Assembly (NCBI GenBank): GCA_027460535.1 | Contig: JAPZAR010000010.1 | Location: 30,001-62,000 of the forward strand | Length of the DNA stretch: 32,000 nt | From: Candidatus Methanoperedens sp. | Lineage (GTDB): Archaea > Halobacteriota > Methanosarcinia > Methanosarcinales > Methanoperedenaceae | Reading direction: 5' to 3' | Shown: positions 1 to 7,652 of the stretch, in pieces | Layout: each line of letters begins with the position of its first letter | Numbering within the stretch: the first letter of the stretch is position 1 | The notes under the pieces: generated by a model | Database searches by the model: none | What the model saw: the letters and a program-made list of their open reading frames with translations, nothing else | What the model was told of the DNA's origin: nothing | Program-made: the position numbers and the translations under genes

Positions 1-1070
1 CAGCGAAGATCCAGAGTGCAGTTGCCGACATGATAAAGGTAGAGAACGGCGACGACACCAATGTAGAATCCTTGAACGGTGGAAAACAGCTCATTGTTCA
101 GGTGCCTTCCCAGAGGATCGATGTAGCAGCAGAGTATGTATCATCACTGACCTGCTCAGCATCAGCAGTAACACAGGCTATCATAACCCAGTTCAATATC
201 GGAATGTTCGATGCACCAACCATCAAGTCCGCAGTCTGGGGACAGTACCCGCAGACCCTTGATATGGTCGGCGGAAACGTAAAGTCCATCGTCGAAATCC
301 CACAGAAAGATGAAGGCTTTGGTTATACGCTCAGAAACGTCATGGCAAACCACCTTGCAGCAACCTGTAAGTTCAATGCTATGAACACAGCAGCTCTTTG
401 CTCGATCCTTGAGAACACCGGTGTCTTCGAAATGGGAGACGCAATCGGTATCCAGGAAAGACATAGATTACTGGCATTCTCACACCAGGGCTTGAATGCA
501 AACAACATGGTATATGGAACTGTAAAAGCCCTGGGCAAGACAGGTACCATCGGTACAGCTGTGCATGCATGCGTCGAAAAGGCAATTGCAGATAAGGTTA
601 TCAGCGCAGATAAGAAATTTGCATCTGGCTATACAACCTACAAGACCAATGATGTCGGAAAGTGGAATGCATATTGTGCAGCAGGCACAATGGTTGCAAC
701 ACTTATCAACTGCGGTGCAATGAGGGCCCCACAGTCAGTATCAGCAGTATTGCTGTATTTCAACGACCTCATTGAGAAAGAGACCTCACTGCCAGGTTGC
801 GACTTTGGTAAGGTAGAGGGTGCAGCGGTCGGATTCTCCTTCTTCTCACACTCCATATACGGAGGCGGAGGACCTGGAGTCTTCAACGGCAATCACGTCG
901 TTACCAGACACTCAAAGGGTCTTGCAGTACCATGCGTAGCAGCAGCAGTTGCTCTTGACGCAGGTGTGCAGATCTACAGCCCGGCAAAGACCTCTCAGCT
1001 CGTAGGAGATGTCTTCAGCTCAGTCGATGAATTCAGAGAGCCGATCAAGGCTGTAGCGGGGGCCGTATAA
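1..1070 (+). CDS. mcrB: methyl-coenzyme M reductase beta subunit, 5'-truncated by the window edge
   Basis: The frame is open from nt 3 (AKIQSAVAD before the first listed Met). About 355 aa are visible, roughly 85-90 fewer than a full-length McrB (~435-445 aa). The McrB-like sequence includes FFSHSIYGGGGPGVFNGNHVVTRHSKG. It sits immediately upstream of mcrD/G/A. Confidence 0.93.
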   Translation, partial: AKIQSAVADMIKVENGDDTNVESLNGGKQLIVQVPSQRIDVAAEYVSSLTCSASAVTQAIITQFNIGMFDAPTIKSAVWGQYPQTLDMVGGNVKSIVEIPQKDEGFGYTLRNVMANHLAATCKFNAMNTAALCSILENTGVFEMGDAIGIQERHRLLAFSHQGLNANNMVYGTVKALGKTGTIGTAVHACVEKAIADKVISADKKFASGYTTYKTNDVGKWNAYCAAGTMVATLINCGAMRAPQSVSAVLLYFNDLIEKETSLPGCDFGKVEGAAVGFSFFSHSIYGGGGPGVFNGNHVVTRHSKGLAVPCVAAAVALDAGVQIYSPAKTSQLVGDVFSSVDEFREPIKAVAGAV

Positions 1071-1084
1071 ATTCGGAGAATTGA

Positions 1085-1606
1085 ATGGTAAAAACTGCTT
1101 CAGTCACGGATAAACCCATCCAGGTAAAGGTATTTCCAAAACGATTATTACTGCCAGAGACCGCTGAGAGAGCCTTGAATGAGATCGATCAGGTCAAGGG
1201 TGTAATAAGAATGCTCATAAATGGCAAAAATCTGCCAAGAAAGGTCACAAGTGGACCCGGTACAGGTACAGACGTAAACCATCCCGAAAGGAAAATAATC
1301 CATGTAGGGGAATGTGCATTGGAATTGCATATTATAGTGGGAGAGATATTAGTCGAAGTTGAAGATGAAAGTGCTGTAGAGGGGGTCAGAAAAGCGTGTG
1401 AGCGAGCGTTTCCCTTCTCGTTTGAATTCAAGCGCGGGCACTTCATGAAGAGGAAACCGACTTTGACTGATTACGGCAAGTATGGGTTCAGGAGCAGGAC
1501 TGACGAGAGTATCAATCTTGAGGATGAACGCTTACTGGGCTTGATAGACCCACATGCAAATGCGGAAAGCAATCTTTGTGTAATTGACACAGAGGAAAAA
1601 CCTTGA
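1085..1606 (+). CDS. mcrD: methyl-coenzyme M reductase operon protein D
   Basis: 173 aa, located between mcrB and mcrG. The N-terminus is McrD-like (VFPKRLLLPETAERALNEI...RMLINGKNLP). A GGAGA Shine-Dalgarno sequence lies 5 nt upstream. Confidence 0.88.
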   Translation: MVKTASVTDKPIQVKVFPKRLLLPETAERALNEIDQVKGVIRMLINGKNLPRKVTSGPGTGTDVNHPERKIIHVGECALELHIIVGEILVEVEDESAVEGVRKACERAFPFSFEFKRGHFMKRKPTLTDYGKYGFRSRTDESINLEDERLLGLIDPHANAESNLCVIDTEEKP

Positions 1607-1662: not shown

Positions 1663-2412
1663 ATGGCTTATAAACCACAATACTACCCAGGCAATACCTC
1701 AGTTGCAAAGAATAGAAGAAAACACATGTCAGATGATGTTGAGAAACTGCGCGATATATCAGATGAGGACTTAACCGCACTTCTCGGACACAGAGCGCCC
1801 GGCTCGGACTATCCAAGCACCCATCCACCACTTGCGGAAATGGGAGAGCCGGATGATCCAGTAAGAGAGGTTGTTGAACCAACCCCAGGTGCAGCAGCAG
1901 GCGACAGGGTCAGATACTCACAGTTCTCTGACTCGATGTACAATGCGCCATCAACCCCATACTGGAGATCGTATCATGCAGCGATCAACTTCAGAGGAGT
2001 TGACCCAGGTACCCTGTCAGGCAGACAGGTCAATGAAATGAGAGAGAGAGATCTTGAAGAGTATACCAAGAGACAGGCAGAGACCGAAATGACTGACTGG
2101 GGTCTTGCAGGTCTAAGAGGCTGTACAGTTCACGGACACTCCCTCAGACTTCAGGAAGACGGCGTAATGTTCGATATGCTGGACAGGCGCAGACTCGAAG
2201 GCGGCGTAATGGTAATGGACAAGGACCAGGTCGGCGTACCAATTGACAGGAAGGTCAACCTTGGGAAACCAATGAGCGAGTCCGAAGCTGCCAAGAGAAC
2301 CACCATATATAGAGTGGACAATGTACCCTTCAGAAGCGACAAAGAAGTCGTCGAACATGTGCAGAGAGTCTGGGAGTTAAGAACCAAATATGGCTTCCAG
2401 CCAAAGGCGTGA
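1663..2412 (+). CDS. mcrG: methyl-coenzyme M reductase gamma subunit
   Basis: 249 aa with a typical McrG N-terminus (YYPGNTSVAKNRRKHMS...EKLRDISDEDL). A strong AAGGAGGA ribosome-binding site is present. Confidence 0.95.
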   Translation: MAYKPQYYPGNTSVAKNRRKHMSDDVEKLRDISDEDLTALLGHRAPGSDYPSTHPPLAEMGEPDDPVREVVEPTPGAAAGDRVRYSQFSDSMYNAPSTPYWRSYHAAINFRGVDPGTLSGRQVNEMRERDLEEYTKRQAETEMTDWGLAGLRGCTVHGHSLRLQEDGVMFDMLDRRRLEGGVMVMDKDQVGVPIDRKVNLGKPMSESEAAKRTTIYRVDNVPFRSDKEVVEHVQRVWELRTKYGFQPKA

Positions 2413-2423
2413 GGTGATTCAAA

Positions 2424-4124
2424 ATGGCAGATCCAAAATTTAAGAAAGCAATGGAAACAAAGTACGCAAAAGAATGGGGATCCAACAAGTGCGGCTCCAC
2501 TGCAAAGAACAAAATAACAGATAAGAAGACCAAATACCTCAGATTGGGATATACACAGAACCCAAGAAAGGTAGAAATGACAAAGTGCGGAGCGGCAATC
2601 ACCAAGAAGAGAGGATTACAGGCATATGATCCAAAGTTGCATCTTGCCGGTATCCCAATGGGTCAGAGACAGTTGACCCCGTATACAATATCTGGAACAG
2701 ATATCGTATGCGATGGTGACGATCTACACTTCGTCAACAATGCTGCAATGCAGCAGGAATGGGACGATATCAGGAGAACATGTGTGGTAGGACTTGACCT
2801 CGCACATGAGACTCTTGAGAAGAGATTGGGCAAAGAAGTTACCCCCGAGACCATCAACTACTACCTCGAAGTCTTAAACCATGCAATGCCTGGCGCAGCA
2901 ATCGTTCAGGAACACATGGTCGAGACACACCCGGCACTGGTTGATGACTGCTATGTGAAAGTATTCACAGGCGACGAATCCCTCCAGGATGAAATCGACA
3001 AGCAGTTCGTTATCAATATCGACAACGAATTCCCGGCAAACCAGGCAAAACAAGTTAAGGCAGCAATGGGCAAGACCTCCTGGCAGGCAGTGCACATCCC
3101 GACCATAGTCACAAGGACTGAGGACGGACCAGGCACAAGCCGCTGGATGGCAATGCAGGTCGGTATGACCTTTATCAGCGCATATCATATGTGCGCCGGT
3201 GAAGCAGCAGTCGGTGAACTTGCATTCACAGCAAAGCACGCTGGACTTGTTGAAATGGGTGATATGATCCCGGCCCGCAGAGCCAGGGGACCAAATGAGC
3301 CCGGAGGATTATCCTTCGGTCATATGGCAGATATCGTTCAGACCAACAGGAAAACACCAGAGGACCCGGTAAATGTTGTCTTACAGGTAGCAAGCGCAGC
3401 AACCATGCTGTATGACCAGATATGGCTCGGCGGCTACATGTCAGGCGGTGTCGGATTCACAATGTATGCAACACCAGCATACACCAATGATATCCTGGAT
3501 GACTACTGCTATTGGGGCAAAGAATACGCAGATAAGAAATACGGTGGACCAAGAAAGGCCAAAGCCACAATCGAAGTTGTCAAAGACATCGGCACAGAGG
3601 TAACCCTCTACGGTATTGAATCGTATGAGAAGTACCCGACAACACTCGAGGACCACTTCGGAGGCTCGCAGCGCGCTACAGTACTTGCTCTCGCAGCCGG
3701 TACTACAGCAGCAGCGGCAACCGGACACAGCAATGCCGGTCTATCCGCATGGTATCTCTCCATGTACCTCCACAAAGAGGCATGGGGCAGACTTGGATTC
3801 TACGGATACGATCTGCAGGATCAGTGCGGTGCCACCAACGTGTTCTCGATCGGCTCAGATGAAGGCTGCATAGGCGAATGCAGAGGTGCAAACTACCCGA
3901 ACTACGCTATGAACGTAGGTCACCAGGGTGGATACACCGCCGTAGTCGCAGCAGCACACGCTGGCACAGATGCCTTCGTTGTGAACCCGTTAGTCAAGAC
4001 CTGCTTCGCAGATGACCTGGTCAACTTTGACTTCGCGGATCCAAGAGGAGCATTCGGCAAGGCGGCACTCAGAGAGTGGGACCGCTGCGCCGGTGAGAGA
4101 GCATTCGTTATCCCAGCAAAGTAA
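2424..4124 (+). CDS. mcrA: methyl-coenzyme M reductase alpha subunit
   Basis: 566 aa with hallmark McrA segments: [34 protein letters not shown] and [18 protein letters not shown] (the thioglycine / didehydro-Asp / S-methyl-Cys region). A GAGGTGA ribosome-binding site is present. Confidence 0.97.
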
Positions 4125-4130
4125 ATCCAT

Positions 4131-4167
4131 AAGTAGGCTTCATGCCTACTTTTTCTTATTTTTTTTG
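4131..4167 (+). terminator. hairpin plus T-run terminator of the mcr operon
   Basis: The stem is aagtaggc / gcctactt with loop ttcat. It is followed directly by tttcttattttttttggg, 7 nt after the mcrA stop. Confidence 0.55.
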
Positions 4168-4232: not shown

Positions 4233-4490
4233 ATGGCGGAAGCAAAAGTAGAAAAGAAACGAGCGCCGAAAGTACCCGGTTTAGTAACATGCATGTACTG
4301 TGACGGGACAGGAAAGCAGGAAGGCAAGACATGCATTGTTTGCGGCGGAAAAGGAAAGGTAGAAGTCGTAGATTCATCAAGAAAATGCCAGTGGTGCAAG
4401 GGCAGAGGTTACTTGATGAAAGGAATTCCATGCACAAACTGTGGTGGAACGGGCTATACCAGACCTATCGGTAGAGAGCGCCTGTTCTAA
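4233..4490 (+). CDS. standalone DnaJ-type cysteine-rich zinc-finger protein (4x CXXCXGXG)
   Basis: 85 aa containing four motifs: CMYCDGTG, CIVCGGKG, CQWCKGRG and CTNCGGTG. These are the CXXCXGXG repeats of the DnaJ zinc-binding domain. No J-domain is present. Confidence 0.7.
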   Translation: MAEAKVEKKRAPKVPGLVTCMYCDGTGKQEGKTCIVCGGKGKVEVVDSSRKCQWCKGRGYLMKGIPCTNCGGTGYTRPIGRERLF

Positions 4491-4560: not shown

Positions 4561-4881
4561 TTACGATTTCTTGTAATTATACTTTTCACTTAATTTTTGA
4601 TAGATGTAGTCATGCGCATTATTCACCGCTTCCAATTCACCTCGCAGCACAAGTAGATTTTCCGGGTCTACATCTATTGTTTTAACTGCGCATTTCCGAT
4701 GGGCAATTTCCAGATTGAATTTATCCACGGCTTCAATGATCACTTTATGCGGCAATCCCGGTGGCAGAACCAGGTCATACATGCCTTCAAGGGCTTTTTC
4801 TTCCGGACTAACATTTTCTTTTGTCTCTTCTTCGAATTCATCTCCAACGTATTTGGATTTAGTTTTTTCCATAGTAATCAC
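4561..4881 (-). CDS. hypothetical acidic protein
   Basis: The ORF is 106 aa from a GTG start. An in-frame ATG at 4872 (MEKTKSKY...) is the more likely start. It is divergent from the radical SAM gene and I recognise no family. Confidence 0.45.
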   Translation of the reverse strand: MITMEKTKSKYVGDEFEEETKENVSPEEKALEGMYDLVLPPGLPHKVIIEAVDKFNLEIAHRKCAVKTIDVDPENLLVLRGELEAVNNAHDYIYQKLSEKYNYKKS

Positions 4882-4928: not shown

Positions 4929-7100
4929 ATGCTTACAAAATTATTATTTCCTCCACAATGGATTCCTACCCAGCCTTATTTAAGTCTTCCATCTCTCACA
5001 GCTTTCCTGAAATCCAATAATTGTAACGTTGAACAGGCGGATATCAATATAGCATTCTTTGATGACCTGTTGAGTAAAAAGGGCATGCGTGAATTTTATG
5101 AGAAGGCCTATTCTAAATTCCAGGATATTGAATCTAAAGAAGAGTTACCCCCTGAACTCCAGAGGCAATACGCAGCCTTGAGCAGCTCTATACTTTTTGG
5201 TGAGAGCATTATTGATGAGGTGGACGAAGCAAAAAAACTATTGAAGGATAAAGAGGGTTTTTACGAGATCGATGAATTATTCAGGGCATTCAAGGTTCTT
5301 GAACTTGGCCTCAAGCTTGCATCTTCCGCTTACTATCCCACGAACCTGACCTTTCATTCTTATGACATGCGTTACTCATGCCGTTCGAGCAATGACGTGC
5401 TATCAGCAATAAATGATGATGAAGAGAATCTCTTTATAGACTATTTTAAGAAAAACACGGTCGCTGATATCCTGAGAAACAAACCCGATTTAATAGGCAT
5501 TTCCATTATTAATACAAGCCAACTGATCCCAGGATTGACGCTTGCCAATCTGATTAAGAAATCCGACGGGAATGTTCATATAAACATTGGAGGCAGTGTT
5601 TTTACGCGTCTCATCCCTGAGATCAGCCATAATAAAGAACTTTTTTCAGTTTTTGACAGCGTAATCGTCCATGAAGGTGAGACTGCTTTATTGAATCTGA
5701 TTTCATATTTAAAGAACGAATTCGATATAAATTCCATCACCAATCTCATTTACAGGAATGGTTCTGAAATCAGGGTCAATGAATTAAATTCACAGGGGGA
5801 AGACATCGATCAATTGCCAACTCCATGCTTTGATGGTTTCCCTCTGGACCGGTATTTTTCACCGGAACTTATCCTTCCTGTACTTTCTTCAAGGGGATGC
5901 TATTGGAGGCGGTGCACTTTTTGCGACCACGGCTATGGTTATTCAGGGAAATACAGGCCAAGGGATGTTGATCTGCTTTACAAAGACCTGGATAACTTAA
6001 AGACAAAATATAAGACCGGGTTTTTTACATTCCAGGATGAGGGCCTTGCCCCAAAATTGGTTAAAGCATTATCTGATAAATTAATTGAAAGTTCCCTGGA
6101 AATATCGTGGTTAGCCGATTCGAGATTTGAATCAGCGTTTTCTCCCGAACTGGGCAGAAAACTTGCCAGTGCAGGGTGTAAGATGATCTATTTTGGGCTG
6201 GAGTCTGCAAATGAACGGATTCTGACATGCATGGATAAGGGAATAAAAAAGGAAAATGTCTTAAAAATCTGCAAATACAGTACAGATGCAGGTATCTGGA
6301 CGCACCTTTTTTTGATATTCGGATTTCCCACTGAGACCAGGGATGAAGCAAAGGAAACAATGGATTTTATTTTAGAGAACAATGAAGTAATCCGTTCAAT
6401 GTCATTCGGTAGTTTCCAGCTTACCAGGCACTCAAAGGTTTATGAAAACCCGACAGCTTTTGAGGTTACCAAAGTAGTCCAGGATGACAGTATTGATCTC
6501 TCATTATGGTTTGATTATGAAATCAAAAGCGGGCTGTCTAAGAAGGAAACGGATGAGATCATAAAGGAATTCTACAGCAAACTTTCCATGAGGTACGGGG
6601 ATTTTCCTATATGGAGCAATCTCGACCGGGAGCATCTTTTTCTATATATTTCCCATTACAAGAAGTCAAGGGATAAAGCCCCGGATCTGTCTTTCCTGAT
6701 CGAAAAAGCCCATAAGAAACAATTAAAGAATAAGCCCACATATATCGATCCTGCAAACAATGAGTATTATCCTTTTCTCGGGGAGGGTGTTTTTGCTGGA
6801 AGGTTCAATTTCAATCTGGCACAACTAATCCATGCGATGATGTCAGGAAACGGATTGAAGAACAAGATGCAAAGAGAAAGAACGAATGTATTGTTCGATA
6901 CCGACAATAACAGGATTTTTACTGTTACTGATTTTGCAAGAGATGTACTTGACAGATGCGATGGTGAACATAAATTATCTGAAATAATAGGATTCATAAA
7001 AGGAAAATATCAAATGTCATTTCCTGAAGCGGATTCTAAATGCAGGAACTTTTTGAATGGGCTGATAGCAAAGAATATAATCTGCAGCAATACTGAATAA
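4929..7100 (+). CDS. B12-binding-domain radical SAM enzyme with a C-terminal PqqD-like (RRE) domain
   Basis: 723 aa. The N-terminal region resembles class-B radical SAM cobalamin-binding domains (PDLIGISIINTSQLIPGLTLANLIKK...INIGGSVFT). The cluster motif is SSRGCYWRRCTFCDHG, which I read as CX4CX2C. The C-terminal ~70 aa (RIFTVTDFARDVLDRCDGEHKLSEIIGFIKGKYQMSFPEADSKCRNFLNGLIAKNII) matches the PqqD / RiPP-recognition-element pattern. Confidence 0.85.
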   Translation: MLTKLLFPPQWIPTQPYLSLPSLTAFLKSNNCNVEQADINIAFFDDLLSKKGMREFYEKAYSKFQDIESKEELPPELQRQYAALSSSILFGESIIDEVDEAKKLLKDKEGFYEIDELFRAFKVLELGLKLASSAYYPTNLTFHSYDMRYSCRSSNDVLSAINDDEENLFIDYFKKNTVADILRNKPDLIGISIINTSQLIPGLTLANLIKKSDGNVHINIGGSVFTRLIPEISHNKELFSVFDSVIVHEGETALLNLISYLKNEFDINSITNLIYRNGSEIRVNELNSQGEDIDQLPTPCFDGFPLDRYFSPELILPVLSSRGCYWRRCTFCDHGYGYSGKYRPRDVDLLYKDLDNLKTKYKTGFFTFQDEGLAPKLVKALSDKLIESSLEISWLADSRFESAFSPELGRKLASAGCKMIYFGLESANERILTCMDKGIKKENVLKICKYSTDAGIWTHLFLIFGFPTETRDEAKETMDFILENNEVIRSMSFGSFQLTRHSKVYENPTAFEVTKVVQDDSIDLSLWFDYEIKSGLSKKETDEIIKEFYSKLSMRYGDFPIWSNLDREHLFLYISHYKKSRDKAPDLSFLIEKAHKKQLKNKPTYIDPANNEYYPFLGEGVFAGRFNFNLAQLIHAMMSGNGLKNKMQRERTNVLFDTDNNRIFTVTDFARDVLDRCDGEHKLSEIIGFIKGKYQMSFPEADSKCRNFLNGLIAKNIICSNTE

Positions 7101-7508: not shown

Positions 7509-7652
7509 TTATGCTTCTGGCTGCGGCGCGGAGCGGCTTCTCAATTGTTCATAGAACTTTGCCTGTCTCTCCCTTTCGGCTTCGTCAACTTCCGGCTTTT
7601 TGACCTTCTTGGCAGCTTCAGCCTGGTCCATTGAGCTTTCCAGTCCAACCAT
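7509..7652 (-). CDS. small charged hypothetical protein (47 aa), not in the supplied ORF track
   Basis: My own translation is MVGLESSMDQAEAAKKVKKPEVDEAERERQAKFYEQLRSRSAPQPEA. A GAGGAGGTGA Shine-Dalgarno sequence lies 6 nt upstream of the ATG at 7652. Confidence 0.35.
   Translation of the reverse strand: MVGLESSMDQAEAAKKVKKPEVDEAERERQAKFYEQLRSRSAPQPEA

Follow-up and report, generated by a model that had tools for sequence, protein, structure and literature searches.

A B12-radical SAM gene beside mcr as a candidate for the McrG 3-methylhistidine modification of Methanoperedenaceae

Most biological methane is made and consumed by MCR, an enzyme whose modified residues have long been a puzzle. 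Mmp10, the MCR arginine C5-methyltransferase, is often mcr-linked in methanogens, and YcaO-TfuA enzymes are often encoded beside mcr as well. RiPP-type maturation chemistry on MCR thus has a forerunner in the thioamidation of McrA by YcaO-TfuA (PMC11796369). In two ANME-2d MCRs, Müller et al. (2025) found McrG to carry a new modification, 3(S)-methyl-His159, to which they assigned no enzyme (PMC12413448). This 3(S)-methylhistidine was reported as the first β-methyl-His of a natural protein as well as the first modification of the gamma chain, and in the atomic-resolution structures it is the only modification reported as ANME-2d-specific; didehydro-Asp and 6-hydroxy-Trp, two further residues with no enzyme assigned to them, are present in ANME-2d MCR and also in ANME-2c MCR (PMC12413448). 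In the literature searched, we found no later paper assigning an enzyme to McrG 3-methylhistidine. ApyD, a B12-radical SAM enzyme with an RRE, makes β-methyl-Tyr in a peptide (PMC10635010).

The window analysed here, a stretch of 32,000 nt of Candidatus Methanoperedens DNA, carries the following features; the gene at 4929..7100 is called the rSAM gene.

1..1070, + strand: mcrB, its 5′ end lost at the window edge (MCR_beta 401.7 bits, MCR_beta_N 140.4 bits)
1085..1606, + strand: mcrD (MCR_D 171.8 bits)
1663..2412, + strand: mcrG, encoding the proposed substrate protein of 249 aa (MCR_gamma 383.5 bits)
2137..2139, + strand: codon CAC of McrG His159, the proposed methylation site (aligned with the modified X159 of PDB 9qqt and 9qr1, chain C)
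2424..4124, + strand: mcrA (MCR_alpha_N 443.2 bits, MCR_alpha 212.1 bits)
4133..4166, + strand: terminator-like hairpin GTAGGC...GCCTAC with a T-run behind it, 3′ of mcrA (read from the sequence; function putative)
4233..4490, + strand: 85-aa DnaJ-type CXXCXGXG zinc-finger protein (DnaJ_CXXCXGXG 30.1 bits, below the cut-off)
4561..4881, − strand: small conserved protein of 106 aa, its gene divergent from the rSAM gene
4929..7100, + strand: B12-binding/radical SAM/RRE fusion protein, open over 723 aa
4929..5780, + strand: cobalamin-type Rossmann domain (from model secondary structure, Pfam B12-binding and Foldseek; limits approximate)
5886..6371, + strand: radical SAM core (PF04055 69.2 bits, residues 320-481)
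5898..5924, + strand: CX4CX2C cluster motif, CYWRRCTFC, residues 324-332 (C324, C329 and C332, invariant alignment columns)
6888..7082, + strand: predicted PqqD/RRE peptide-recognition domain (PF05402 at residues 654-718, and fold match)

The solved chains nearest to the McrG of the window are the ANME-2d MCR gamma chains 9qqt_C (E 3e-156) and 9qr1_C (E 2e-155). The rSAM gene starts 804 nt after the end of mcrA (4124), close to the 800 nt or so given in the first-pass annotation of this DNA, and 47 nt separate its start from that of the divergent 106-aa gene. The hairpin and T-run after mcrA suggest that the rSAM gene lies outside the mcr transcript. Between mcrA and the rSAM gene lie a hairpin, one further gene and one antisense gene, an arrangement that counts against a role on McrG. 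The zinc-finger gene follows mcrA in every locus with sequence there except G015, including the rSAM-less loci G022, G038 and G001, and the 106-aa gene is found in nearly all family loci, rSAM present or absent. The M. nitroreducens ortholog of the 106-aa protein has a precomputed match to PF27275 (MJ0093), and a Pfam scan of the window protein gave no match. In many genomes, small 55-aa and 47-aa genes lie convergent downstream of the rSAM gene, the latter sometimes duplicated.

The protein had at first been read as a cobalamin-binding domain, a radical SAM core and a C-terminal PqqD/RRE-like domain, and profile and fold agree on that architecture. The AlphaFold model of the full-length protein (pLDDT 94.1) has as its top Foldseek matches OxsB, TsrM, TokK, CysS and MgmA 9ccb, which are cobalamin-dependent radical SAM enzymes, and these matches span both the Rossmann and the radical SAM domains (probability 1.00). 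Pfam B12-binding (PF02310) reaches 29.1 bits over residues 175-257, slightly below its cut-off of 32.1, and is matched by 37 of the 50 members of the rSAM family. In the model, an unusual insert made of helices, about 140 aa long (residues ~39-182), splits the Rossmann domain. The cysteine spacing is CX4CX2C and not the canonical CX3CX2C, and C324, C329 and C332 do not vary across the 50-sequence family alignment. By its domains, the protein would belong with the class B (cobalamin-dependent) radical SAM enzymes, methyl transfer being the predicted reaction.

The C-terminal domain passes its PqqD profile, PF05402, with 30.3 bits against a cut-off of 23.4, as do 35 of the 50 family members. Modelled alone, the C-terminal 84 aa (pLDDT 87.9) match leader-bound TbiB1 (Z 9.7), leader-bound lasso B1 (Z 9.5) and PqqD 3g2b (Z 9.3), in a search in which an unrelated methyltransferase domain likewise reached Z 9.3. 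Of the elements of the RRE winged-helix, the domain model has two strands out of three and every one of the three helices; in the whole-protein model, a short bridge precedes them. The C-terminal 124 aa gave no match when compared by sequence with PDB chains; among the PDB comparisons, it was the fold search alone that found the RRE. Profile and fold thus confirm the domain as an RRE, with peptide binding as its predicted role. In a six-frame scan of the 2.9-Mb genome, the only PqqD match is the one in the rSAM gene itself. The gene is under purifying selection where it is kept, with a dN/dS of 0.10-0.19; that of the last 80 codons, the RRE end, is 0.11-0.31.

Orthologs of the rSAM protein, at 62-75% identity, occur in 43 of the 53 Methanoperedenaceae genomes. 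Orthologs in non-mcr organisms had been named in the first-pass annotation as grounds for rejecting its idea; in the genomes sampled, none appeared outside the family (0 of 231 other genomes of the order, and none in about 400 of the phylum). Where the rSAM gene and mcr are on one contig, the gene stands directly 3′ of mcrBDGA in 27 of 28 cases, 1.1-1.9 kb beyond the mcrA C-terminal domain and in the conserved order mcrBDGA, zinc-finger gene, small gene, rSAM gene; the linkage is found in a second genus as well. The lone unlinked case (G009) is compatible with a 36-kb inversion, and its rSAM gene is intact. The first-pass annotation had drawn a functional link to MCR and had expected the linkage to recur in related genomes; the distribution supports the former and the latter is conserved. 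In the rSAM tree, the Methanoperedens sequences form a monophyletic clade (SH-aLRT 100), and the stem leading to it is long (0.48). The gene has nevertheless been lost or pseudogenised at least four times in the family, and is therefore dispensable, with an accessory function; 7 of 34 high-quality genomes are without it.

Which residue of MCR might such an enzyme modify? The initial suggestion was McrA, and this is probably wrong, since the two known C-methylations of McrA are accounted for and the sole unassigned ANME-2d-specific C-methylation is on McrG His159. The genome's true Mmp10 is encoded at C7:112009 (TIGR03278, 621 bits), away from mcr, and none of the 53 family genomes has MgmA (best TIGR04014 match in this genome, 139 bits), which agrees with there being no 2-methyl-Gln in ANME-2d MCR. 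Thus, the idea of an MCR-modifying enzyme is upheld as to MCR, with McrG and not McrA as the likely target. After a compensation idea of Müller et al., MgmA was also considered as present in place of the rSAM gene in rSAM-less Methanoperedens, and this was rejected on the same count of MgmA (0 of 53). A co-occurrence of the gene with an MCR modification does exist: both organisms with McrG 3-methyl-His159 carry it. In Vercelli strain 1 the protein, MCX9030099.1, is three accession numbers past McrA (MCX9030096.1); a BLZ2 protein falls in the same 90% cluster, and an intact, mcr-linked copy is present in the genomes whose McrG is BLZ2-like or Vercelli-like. The match of modification to gene distribution takes in only three ANME-2 structures besides the older methanogen structures, which counts against a role on McrG. 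In the supplements of PMC13079737 and PMC12413448, searches found no expression evidence for the rSAM gene.

We propose that the rSAM enzyme probably makes 3(S)-methylhistidine at McrG His159 in Methanoperedenaceae, and that it was domesticated from a bacterial RiPP-maturase family. The gene is the best genomic candidate for the unassigned McrG enzyme. Several lines of evidence lead to this proposal: the model matches B12-radical SAM enzymes and ends in an RRE; the gene is conserved beside mcr and limited to Methanoperedenaceae; the organisms with the modification carry it; the McrG of the window has a His at 159, where 9qqt and 9qr1 have the modified X159; the other C-methylations have their explanation; ApyD offers an RRE-containing relative in chemistry, acting at a β-carbon in a peptide; the signs of a RiPP system are absent, there being no paralog-like precursor and only one PqqD domain in the genome; and selection has preserved the gene where it is kept. 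On the other side, it would be unusual for an RRE to work on an enzyme subunit of 249 aa, and any of the at least nine other B12-radical SAM paralogs could be the real His methylase. Repeated loss of the gene also counts against a role at His159. Co-variation of McrG residues with that loss is not usable as a test, as the D145C/W146P pair occurs only in four rSAM-less genomes, which amounts to one or two events, and the mcrG of G032 seems mosaic.

The course of the reaction can be pictured by analogy with the class B radical SAM methylases. A [4Fe-4S] cluster on CX4CX2C would split SAM, giving a 5′-deoxyadenosyl radical, which would take a hydrogen off C-beta, an unactivated carbon of His159; the carbon radical so formed would receive a methyl group from methylcobalamin bound by the N-terminal Rossmann domain, and the cobalamin would be re-methylated by a second SAM. 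The RRE may dock a strand of McrG, free or nascent, prior to MCR assembly, with the His159 loop still exposed. The enzyme would have been recruited out of a mostly non-mcr family of RiPP maturases acting on small leader-bearing peptides. It is tempting to go further, and we give about even chances to a history in which an ancestor of Methanoperedenaceae captured a RiPP maturase, a B12-radical SAM protein with a fused RRE, and repurposed it to methylate a full-size catabolic subunit, the RRE docking unassembled McrG in the manner of a leader peptide.

The first alternative to weigh is that the enzyme is an ordinary RiPP maturase, methylating a small unrecognised precursor, and that the mcr adjacency is a frozen accident of insertion. 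The wider family does resemble RiPP machinery. Relatives at 30-42% identity have the same architecture, B12 and rSAM domains with a C-terminal RRE, and the CX4CX2C motif; where homologs 37-42% identical stand in non-mcr contexts, ORFs of 56-63 aa that resemble precursors lie upstream in the same orientation, with a common leader motif and Asn-rich or Val/Met/His cores. That the nearest relatives are RiPP enzymes with small precursors of their own counts against the His159 proposal, and the top NCBIfam matches are RiPP C-methyltransferases too. Repeated loss would suit an accessory natural-product gene, and the convergent 55-aa and 47-aa genes downstream could be brought in on the same side. 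Against this, no co-oriented small ORF stands ahead of the rSAM gene in this locus or in 25 other family loci. The absence of an adjacent co-oriented precursor ORF had been remarked upon from the start, and it holds, the upstream neighbour being the divergent 106-aa gene; a search for short ORFs with leaders, likewise suggested then, came back empty. Homologs of the paralogs' precursors were sought in the genome by tblastn (E > 2), by a leader HMM over 64,269 six-frame ORFs (best E 2.9) and among Asn-rich small ORFs, with only noise in each case. The four small neighbours (85, 106, 55 and 47 aa) persist at 60-85% identity where the rSAM gene is deleted, and the two shortest, of 55 and 47 aa, lie unlinked to it in M. 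nitroreducens as well as in BLZ2-like and Vercelli-like genomes, so that all four were rejected as obligate substrates and are unlikely to be substrates of the enzyme. Nor does the locus have a protease, a transporter or further tailoring genes, and mcr linkage has held while the orthologs diverged to 62% identity. The RiPP alternative, which the first-pass annotation had left standing, is thereby weakened, and we now hold it to be unlikely. A leader-like motif resemblance at McrG residues 62-72 was also considered and dropped, as the stretch is not conserved in BLZ2 and Vercelli McrG.

A second alternative keeps the enzyme in the MCR system and gives it another target there, be it a residue of McrA, McrB or McrG, the zinc-finger protein or the 106-aa protein, by a chemistry that is possibly not methylation. 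It would explain the same conserved mcr linkage, and ANME-2d MCR has didehydro-Asp and 6-hydroxy-Trp to be provided for. Non-methylation reactions are also known among B12-radical SAM enzymes, and the non-methylating relatives OxsB and AprD4 are among the fold matches. However, those two residues are shared with ANME-2c MCR, while no rSAM ortholog was found in the 231 genomes of the order outside Methanoperedenaceae; the neighbours are unchanged where the enzyme is lost, and the atomic-resolution structures show no further ANME-2d-specific modification. We regard such a target as unlikely. That a B12-radical SAM paralog makes 3-methyl-His159 and the rSAM enzyme has its substrate outside MCR, possibly one that is not a peptide, is very improbable: of the at least nine paralogs in the genome, 8 are in no curated family, but a PqqD domain is found in 0 of 9, none of the nine sites is near mcr (the closest is ~66 kb off), and the RRE of the rSAM protein points to a peptide or protein substrate.

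The rSAM gene offers one cloneable candidate for the McrG 3-methylhistidine enzyme, and the question becomes directly testable; the rSAM-less lineages are natural “knock-outs” for comparison. It is, moreover, an extra accessory gene to include in heterologous expression of ANME-type MCR. If the His159 proposal is true, this would be the first known enzyme making β-methylhistidine and the first modifying enzyme of MCR's gamma chain, and RRE-guided RiPP enzymes could be said to be open to domestication onto large enzymes.

How does the candidate stand beside the systems already described? Among MCR enzymes, MgmA (QCMT; TIGR04014, 9ccb) is likewise a B12-radical SAM protein, and it puts a methyl group on an unactivated carbon in an MCR residue close to F430; the fold match of 9ccb to the rSAM model has a Foldseek E of 1.7e-15 and a target-normalised TM of 0.60. 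MgmA, however, has about 420 aa, without helical insert or RRE, and acts on C-alpha of a McrA Gln, and the rSAM protein scores 61.5 bits against its equivalog cut-off of 360. Mmp10 shares the radical SAM and cobalamin C-methylase type but is of an unrelated family, with no TIGR03278 match in the rSAM protein. Profile comparison with these two methyltransferases, which the first-pass annotation had singled out, thus shows the protein to be neither, and orthology to either is ruled out on scores. The YcaO-TfuA enzymes differ from it in family and in chemistry. The best NCBIfam match is TIGR03975, the PoyC-like RiPP maturation radical SAM C-methyltransferases, at 125.1 bits, below the cut-off of 281.85. 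ApyD, of the aminopyruvatide pathway of Burkholderia thailandensis (NF050148), comes second at 119.9 bits against a cut-off of 750, with the catalytic core alone matched. Its substrate is a small leader-bearing precursor in a multi-enzyme cluster, whereas the rSAM locus is without a precursor and the proposed target is a His on a 249-aa subunit. In the same way, the RRE-fused relatives with known context have adjacent precursors; the Methanoperedens clade is instead tied to mcr.

The window is part of contig C10 of a Candidatus Methanoperedens genome. The gene under study (rSAM) encodes a fusion of B12-binding, radical SAM and PqqD/RRE (peptide-recognition) domains. It lies on the same strand as the mcr genes, in this order:

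from the window start, which cuts into the gene, + strand: mcrB, followed in succession by mcrD, mcrG and mcrA
1663-2412, + strand: mcrG
ending at 4124, + strand: mcrA
4133-4166: terminator-like hairpin and T-run after mcrA
4233-4490, + strand: DnaJ-type zinc-finger gene, 85 aa
4561-4881, - strand (opposite): 106-aa gene
4929-7100, + strand: rSAM, 723 aa
7123-7290, - strand: zinc-ribbon gene, 55 aa, conserved across the family
7509-7652, - strand: Lys/Glu-rich protein gene, 47 aa, conserved across the family

rSAM starts 804 nt past mcrA, and 47 nt separate its start from that of the divergent 106-aa gene. This layout suggests that it has its own transcription unit, separate from mcr, a caveat to any reading in which McrG is its substrate. 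For the 106-aa protein, a precomputed match to PF27275 (MJ0093) exists in the M. nitroreducens ortholog; a Pfam scan of the window copy gave no match. The zinc-ribbon and Lys/Glu-rich genes travel as a pair, independently of rSAM, and the latter is sometimes tandemly duplicated (loci L037 and L069).

The three-domain architecture proposed in the first-pass annotation is borne out in full, since the Pfam domains, the cysteine motif, the structural model and the RRE fold agree. In Pfam, the Radical_SAM domain scores 69.2 bits, PqqD scores 30.3 bits (above its cut-off of 23.4), and the B12-binding domain, at 29.1 bits, falls slightly under its cut-off of 32.1. The cluster motif quoted in that annotation is located at residues 324–332 (nt 5898–5924); its spacing is CX4CX2C, as opposed to the canonical CX3CX2C, and neither this spacing nor any of the three cysteines varies among the 50 aligned family sequences. 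The AlphaFold model built from this 50-sequence alignment is very confident (pLDDT 94.1, pTM 0.93) and shows a Rossmann domain that starts at residue 2 and is split by a helical insert some 140 residues long. Its top Foldseek matches, OxsB, TsrM, TokK, CysS and MgmA, are all cobalamin-dependent radical SAM enzymes. Modeled alone (pLDDT 87.9), the C-terminal 84 residues best match TbiB1 (Z 9.7) and a lasso-peptide B1 protein (Z 9.5), both leader-bound RREs, and PqqD (Z 9.3), with further RRE-bearing RiPP enzymes among the lower-ranked matches.

Of the 53 Methanoperedenaceae genomes, 43 have an rSAM ortholog (62–75% identity), and these cover three of the four genera. A search of 231 further genomes from the order and about 400 sampled from the phylum turned up no ortholog; three genomes of one other genus hold only paralogs, of 35–39% identity. 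Comparing the positions of rSAM and of the mcrA C-terminal domain, with genes mapped in 35 loci, showed that the linkage to mcr noticed in the window holds in related genomes: the order mcrBDGA, zinc-finger gene, small gene, rSAM is found in 27 of 28 same-contig cases. In the sole exception, G009 (C1:31300-77400; loci L068 and L069), the arrangement is that expected from a 36-kb inversion with its breakpoint just upstream of an intact rSAM, between it and the 106-aa gene. Downstream of rSAM the family loci differ: some have the two small genes (zinc-ribbon and Lys/Glu-rich), some an NTP-transferase and some other genes; therefore, the constant partner of rSAM is the mcr side. Where rSAM is kept it is under purifying selection, with dN/dS of 0.10–0.19 for the whole gene and 0.11–0.31 for the RRE part.

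In another genome, G002 (C2:289141-328211), gene order fits an inversion of about 36 kb, with the break between rSAM and the 55-aa zinc-ribbon gene; from these two inversion-like orders, the surroundings of rSAM may be a rearrangement hotspot. Several family genomes (G047, G014, G027, G039, G041 and G046) contain an apparent second mcrA match, which may reflect true duplication or an effect of assembly or binning; in G047, two full-length copies are on contig C10, at 55233 and 91580, 36 kb apart.

What, then, is the substrate? Müller et al. (Nat Commun 2025; PMC12413448) described MCR structures for BLZ2 and Vercelli strain 1, both ANME-2d enrichments, and for one ANME-2c enrichment. The modifications common to the three MCRs are N1-methyl-His, thio-Gly, 5-methyl-Arg, S-methyl-Cys, didehydro-Asp and 6-hydroxy-Trp. 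The ANME-2c MCR has an additional 2-methyl-Gln, which is missing from both ANME-2d MCRs; these have instead a new 3(S)-methylhistidine at gamma-chain His159. According to these authors, free McrG leaves the His159 loop exposed; they argue for a dedicated methyltransferase acting before assembly, with chemistry like that of Mmp10 or MgmA, and name no gene (PMC12413448). Nor is an enzyme for this methylation assigned in any paper found in our literature search. The closest PDB chains to the window McrG are the gamma chains of the two ANME-2d MCRs, in both of which the modified X159 lines up with His159 of the window protein (codon 2137-2139). Vercelli strain 1 encodes rSAM as MCX9030099.1 and its beta, gamma and alpha chains as MCX9030093, -95 and -96 (PMC12413448), so that the accession numbers indicate the same gene order as in the window. 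A BLZ2 protein shares a 90% cluster with the Vercelli rSAM, and genomes with BLZ2-type or Vercelli-type McrG signature motifs have an intact, mcr-linked rSAM. Thus, both organisms carry the gene, and the sole ANME-2d-specific C-methylation coincides with the sole ANME-2d-specific, mcr-linked B12-radical SAM gene, a phyletic argument that covers few solved MCRs. Didehydro-Asp and 6-hydroxy-Trp are poor alternative targets because they also occur in ANME-2c, which has no rSAM ortholog. We propose, with moderate confidence, that rSAM is the C-beta-methyltransferase of McrG His159 and that it was recruited from RiPP machinery; this is the best-supported reading.

One of the main caveats is that another B12-radical SAM protein of the genome could be the relevant enzyme. 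At least nine more, of 379–524 aa, are encoded in the source genome (contigs C7, C8, C9, C10, C11, C27 and C30; loci L008 and L025-L032), and only one of the nine belongs to a curated family (TIGR04013), the other eight being without assigned function; however, none of the nine has a PqqD domain.

The first-pass annotation had also considered that rSAM matures a RiPP, and its relatives give this alternative some substance. The Methanoperedens proteins form one 50%-identity cluster in a whole-library search, with hundreds of further clusters of the same architecture at 30–42% identity; in the tree they form a single clade (SH-aLRT 100) with a long stem, the sister group not being settled. Judged from gene context, the eight relatives inspected look like RiPP maturases. 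Four have a co-oriented ORF of 56–63 aa immediately upstream, with a common leader motif, (L/I)xx(F/Y)xPx(I/V)(I/V), and cores that are Asn-rich in three and Val/Met/His-rich in one; two others lie among further radical SAM genes. These precursor-plus-enzyme loci (L070:5508-8179; L011:7667-10148; L012:7736-10148; L074:1479-4032) constitute a putative, uncharacterised RiPP family. One Asn-rich core contains seven consecutive Asn, and the genome that holds one of the loci, probably a Methanosarcina, belongs to a different family of this order. In the source genome, no homologs of the relatives' precursors were found, and a six-frame scan of its 2.9 Mb revealed no other PqqD domain.

Repeated loss is a further caveat to the His159 reading. 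An accessory RiPP gene would show such loss just as readily. The gene is dispensable: it has six stop codons in G032, is split into three frames in G021, persists only as C-terminal remnants in G019 and G012, and is missing from G022, G038 and G001, which show a clean gap between two flanking small genes; in G015, nothing is recognisable past mcrA. In a tree of 30 genomes built on mcrG+mcrA DNA, the well-supported branches require four or more independent losses. MCR modifications reportedly vary from one lineage to another and, in Methanosarcina, can each be dispensed with; the repeated loss agrees with this.

McrG residues 145-146 are Cys-Pro, not Asp-Trp, only in four rSAM-losing genomes, G032, G012, G022 and G038 (loci L049, L062, L065 and L066), probably through one or two events; G030, which keeps rSAM, has Asp-Pro, and the mcrG of G032 looks mosaic.

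That rSAM is itself MgmA or Mmp10 is ruled out by NCBIfam, in which its MgmA (TIGR04014) score is 61.5 bits (cut-off 360) and the Mmp10 model is not matched, so that the comparison suggested in the first-pass annotation places it in neither family. The true Mmp10 sits elsewhere in the source genome (621 bits); MgmA is absent from it (best match 139 bits) and from all 53 Methanoperedenaceae genomes. The best NCBIfam matches of rSAM, all well below cut-offs, are RiPP and phosphonate C/P-methyltransferases: TIGR03975 (125 bits), ApyD (120 bits) and PhpK (118 bits). On the His159 reading, the RRE would dock McrG before assembly, and methylation would proceed as in the class B radical SAM methylases. 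ApyD, an RRE-containing B12-radical SAM enzyme that beta-methylates Tyr in a peptide (PMC10635010), is a direct precedent, in chemical terms, for an enzyme of this kind beta-methylating an aromatic residue.
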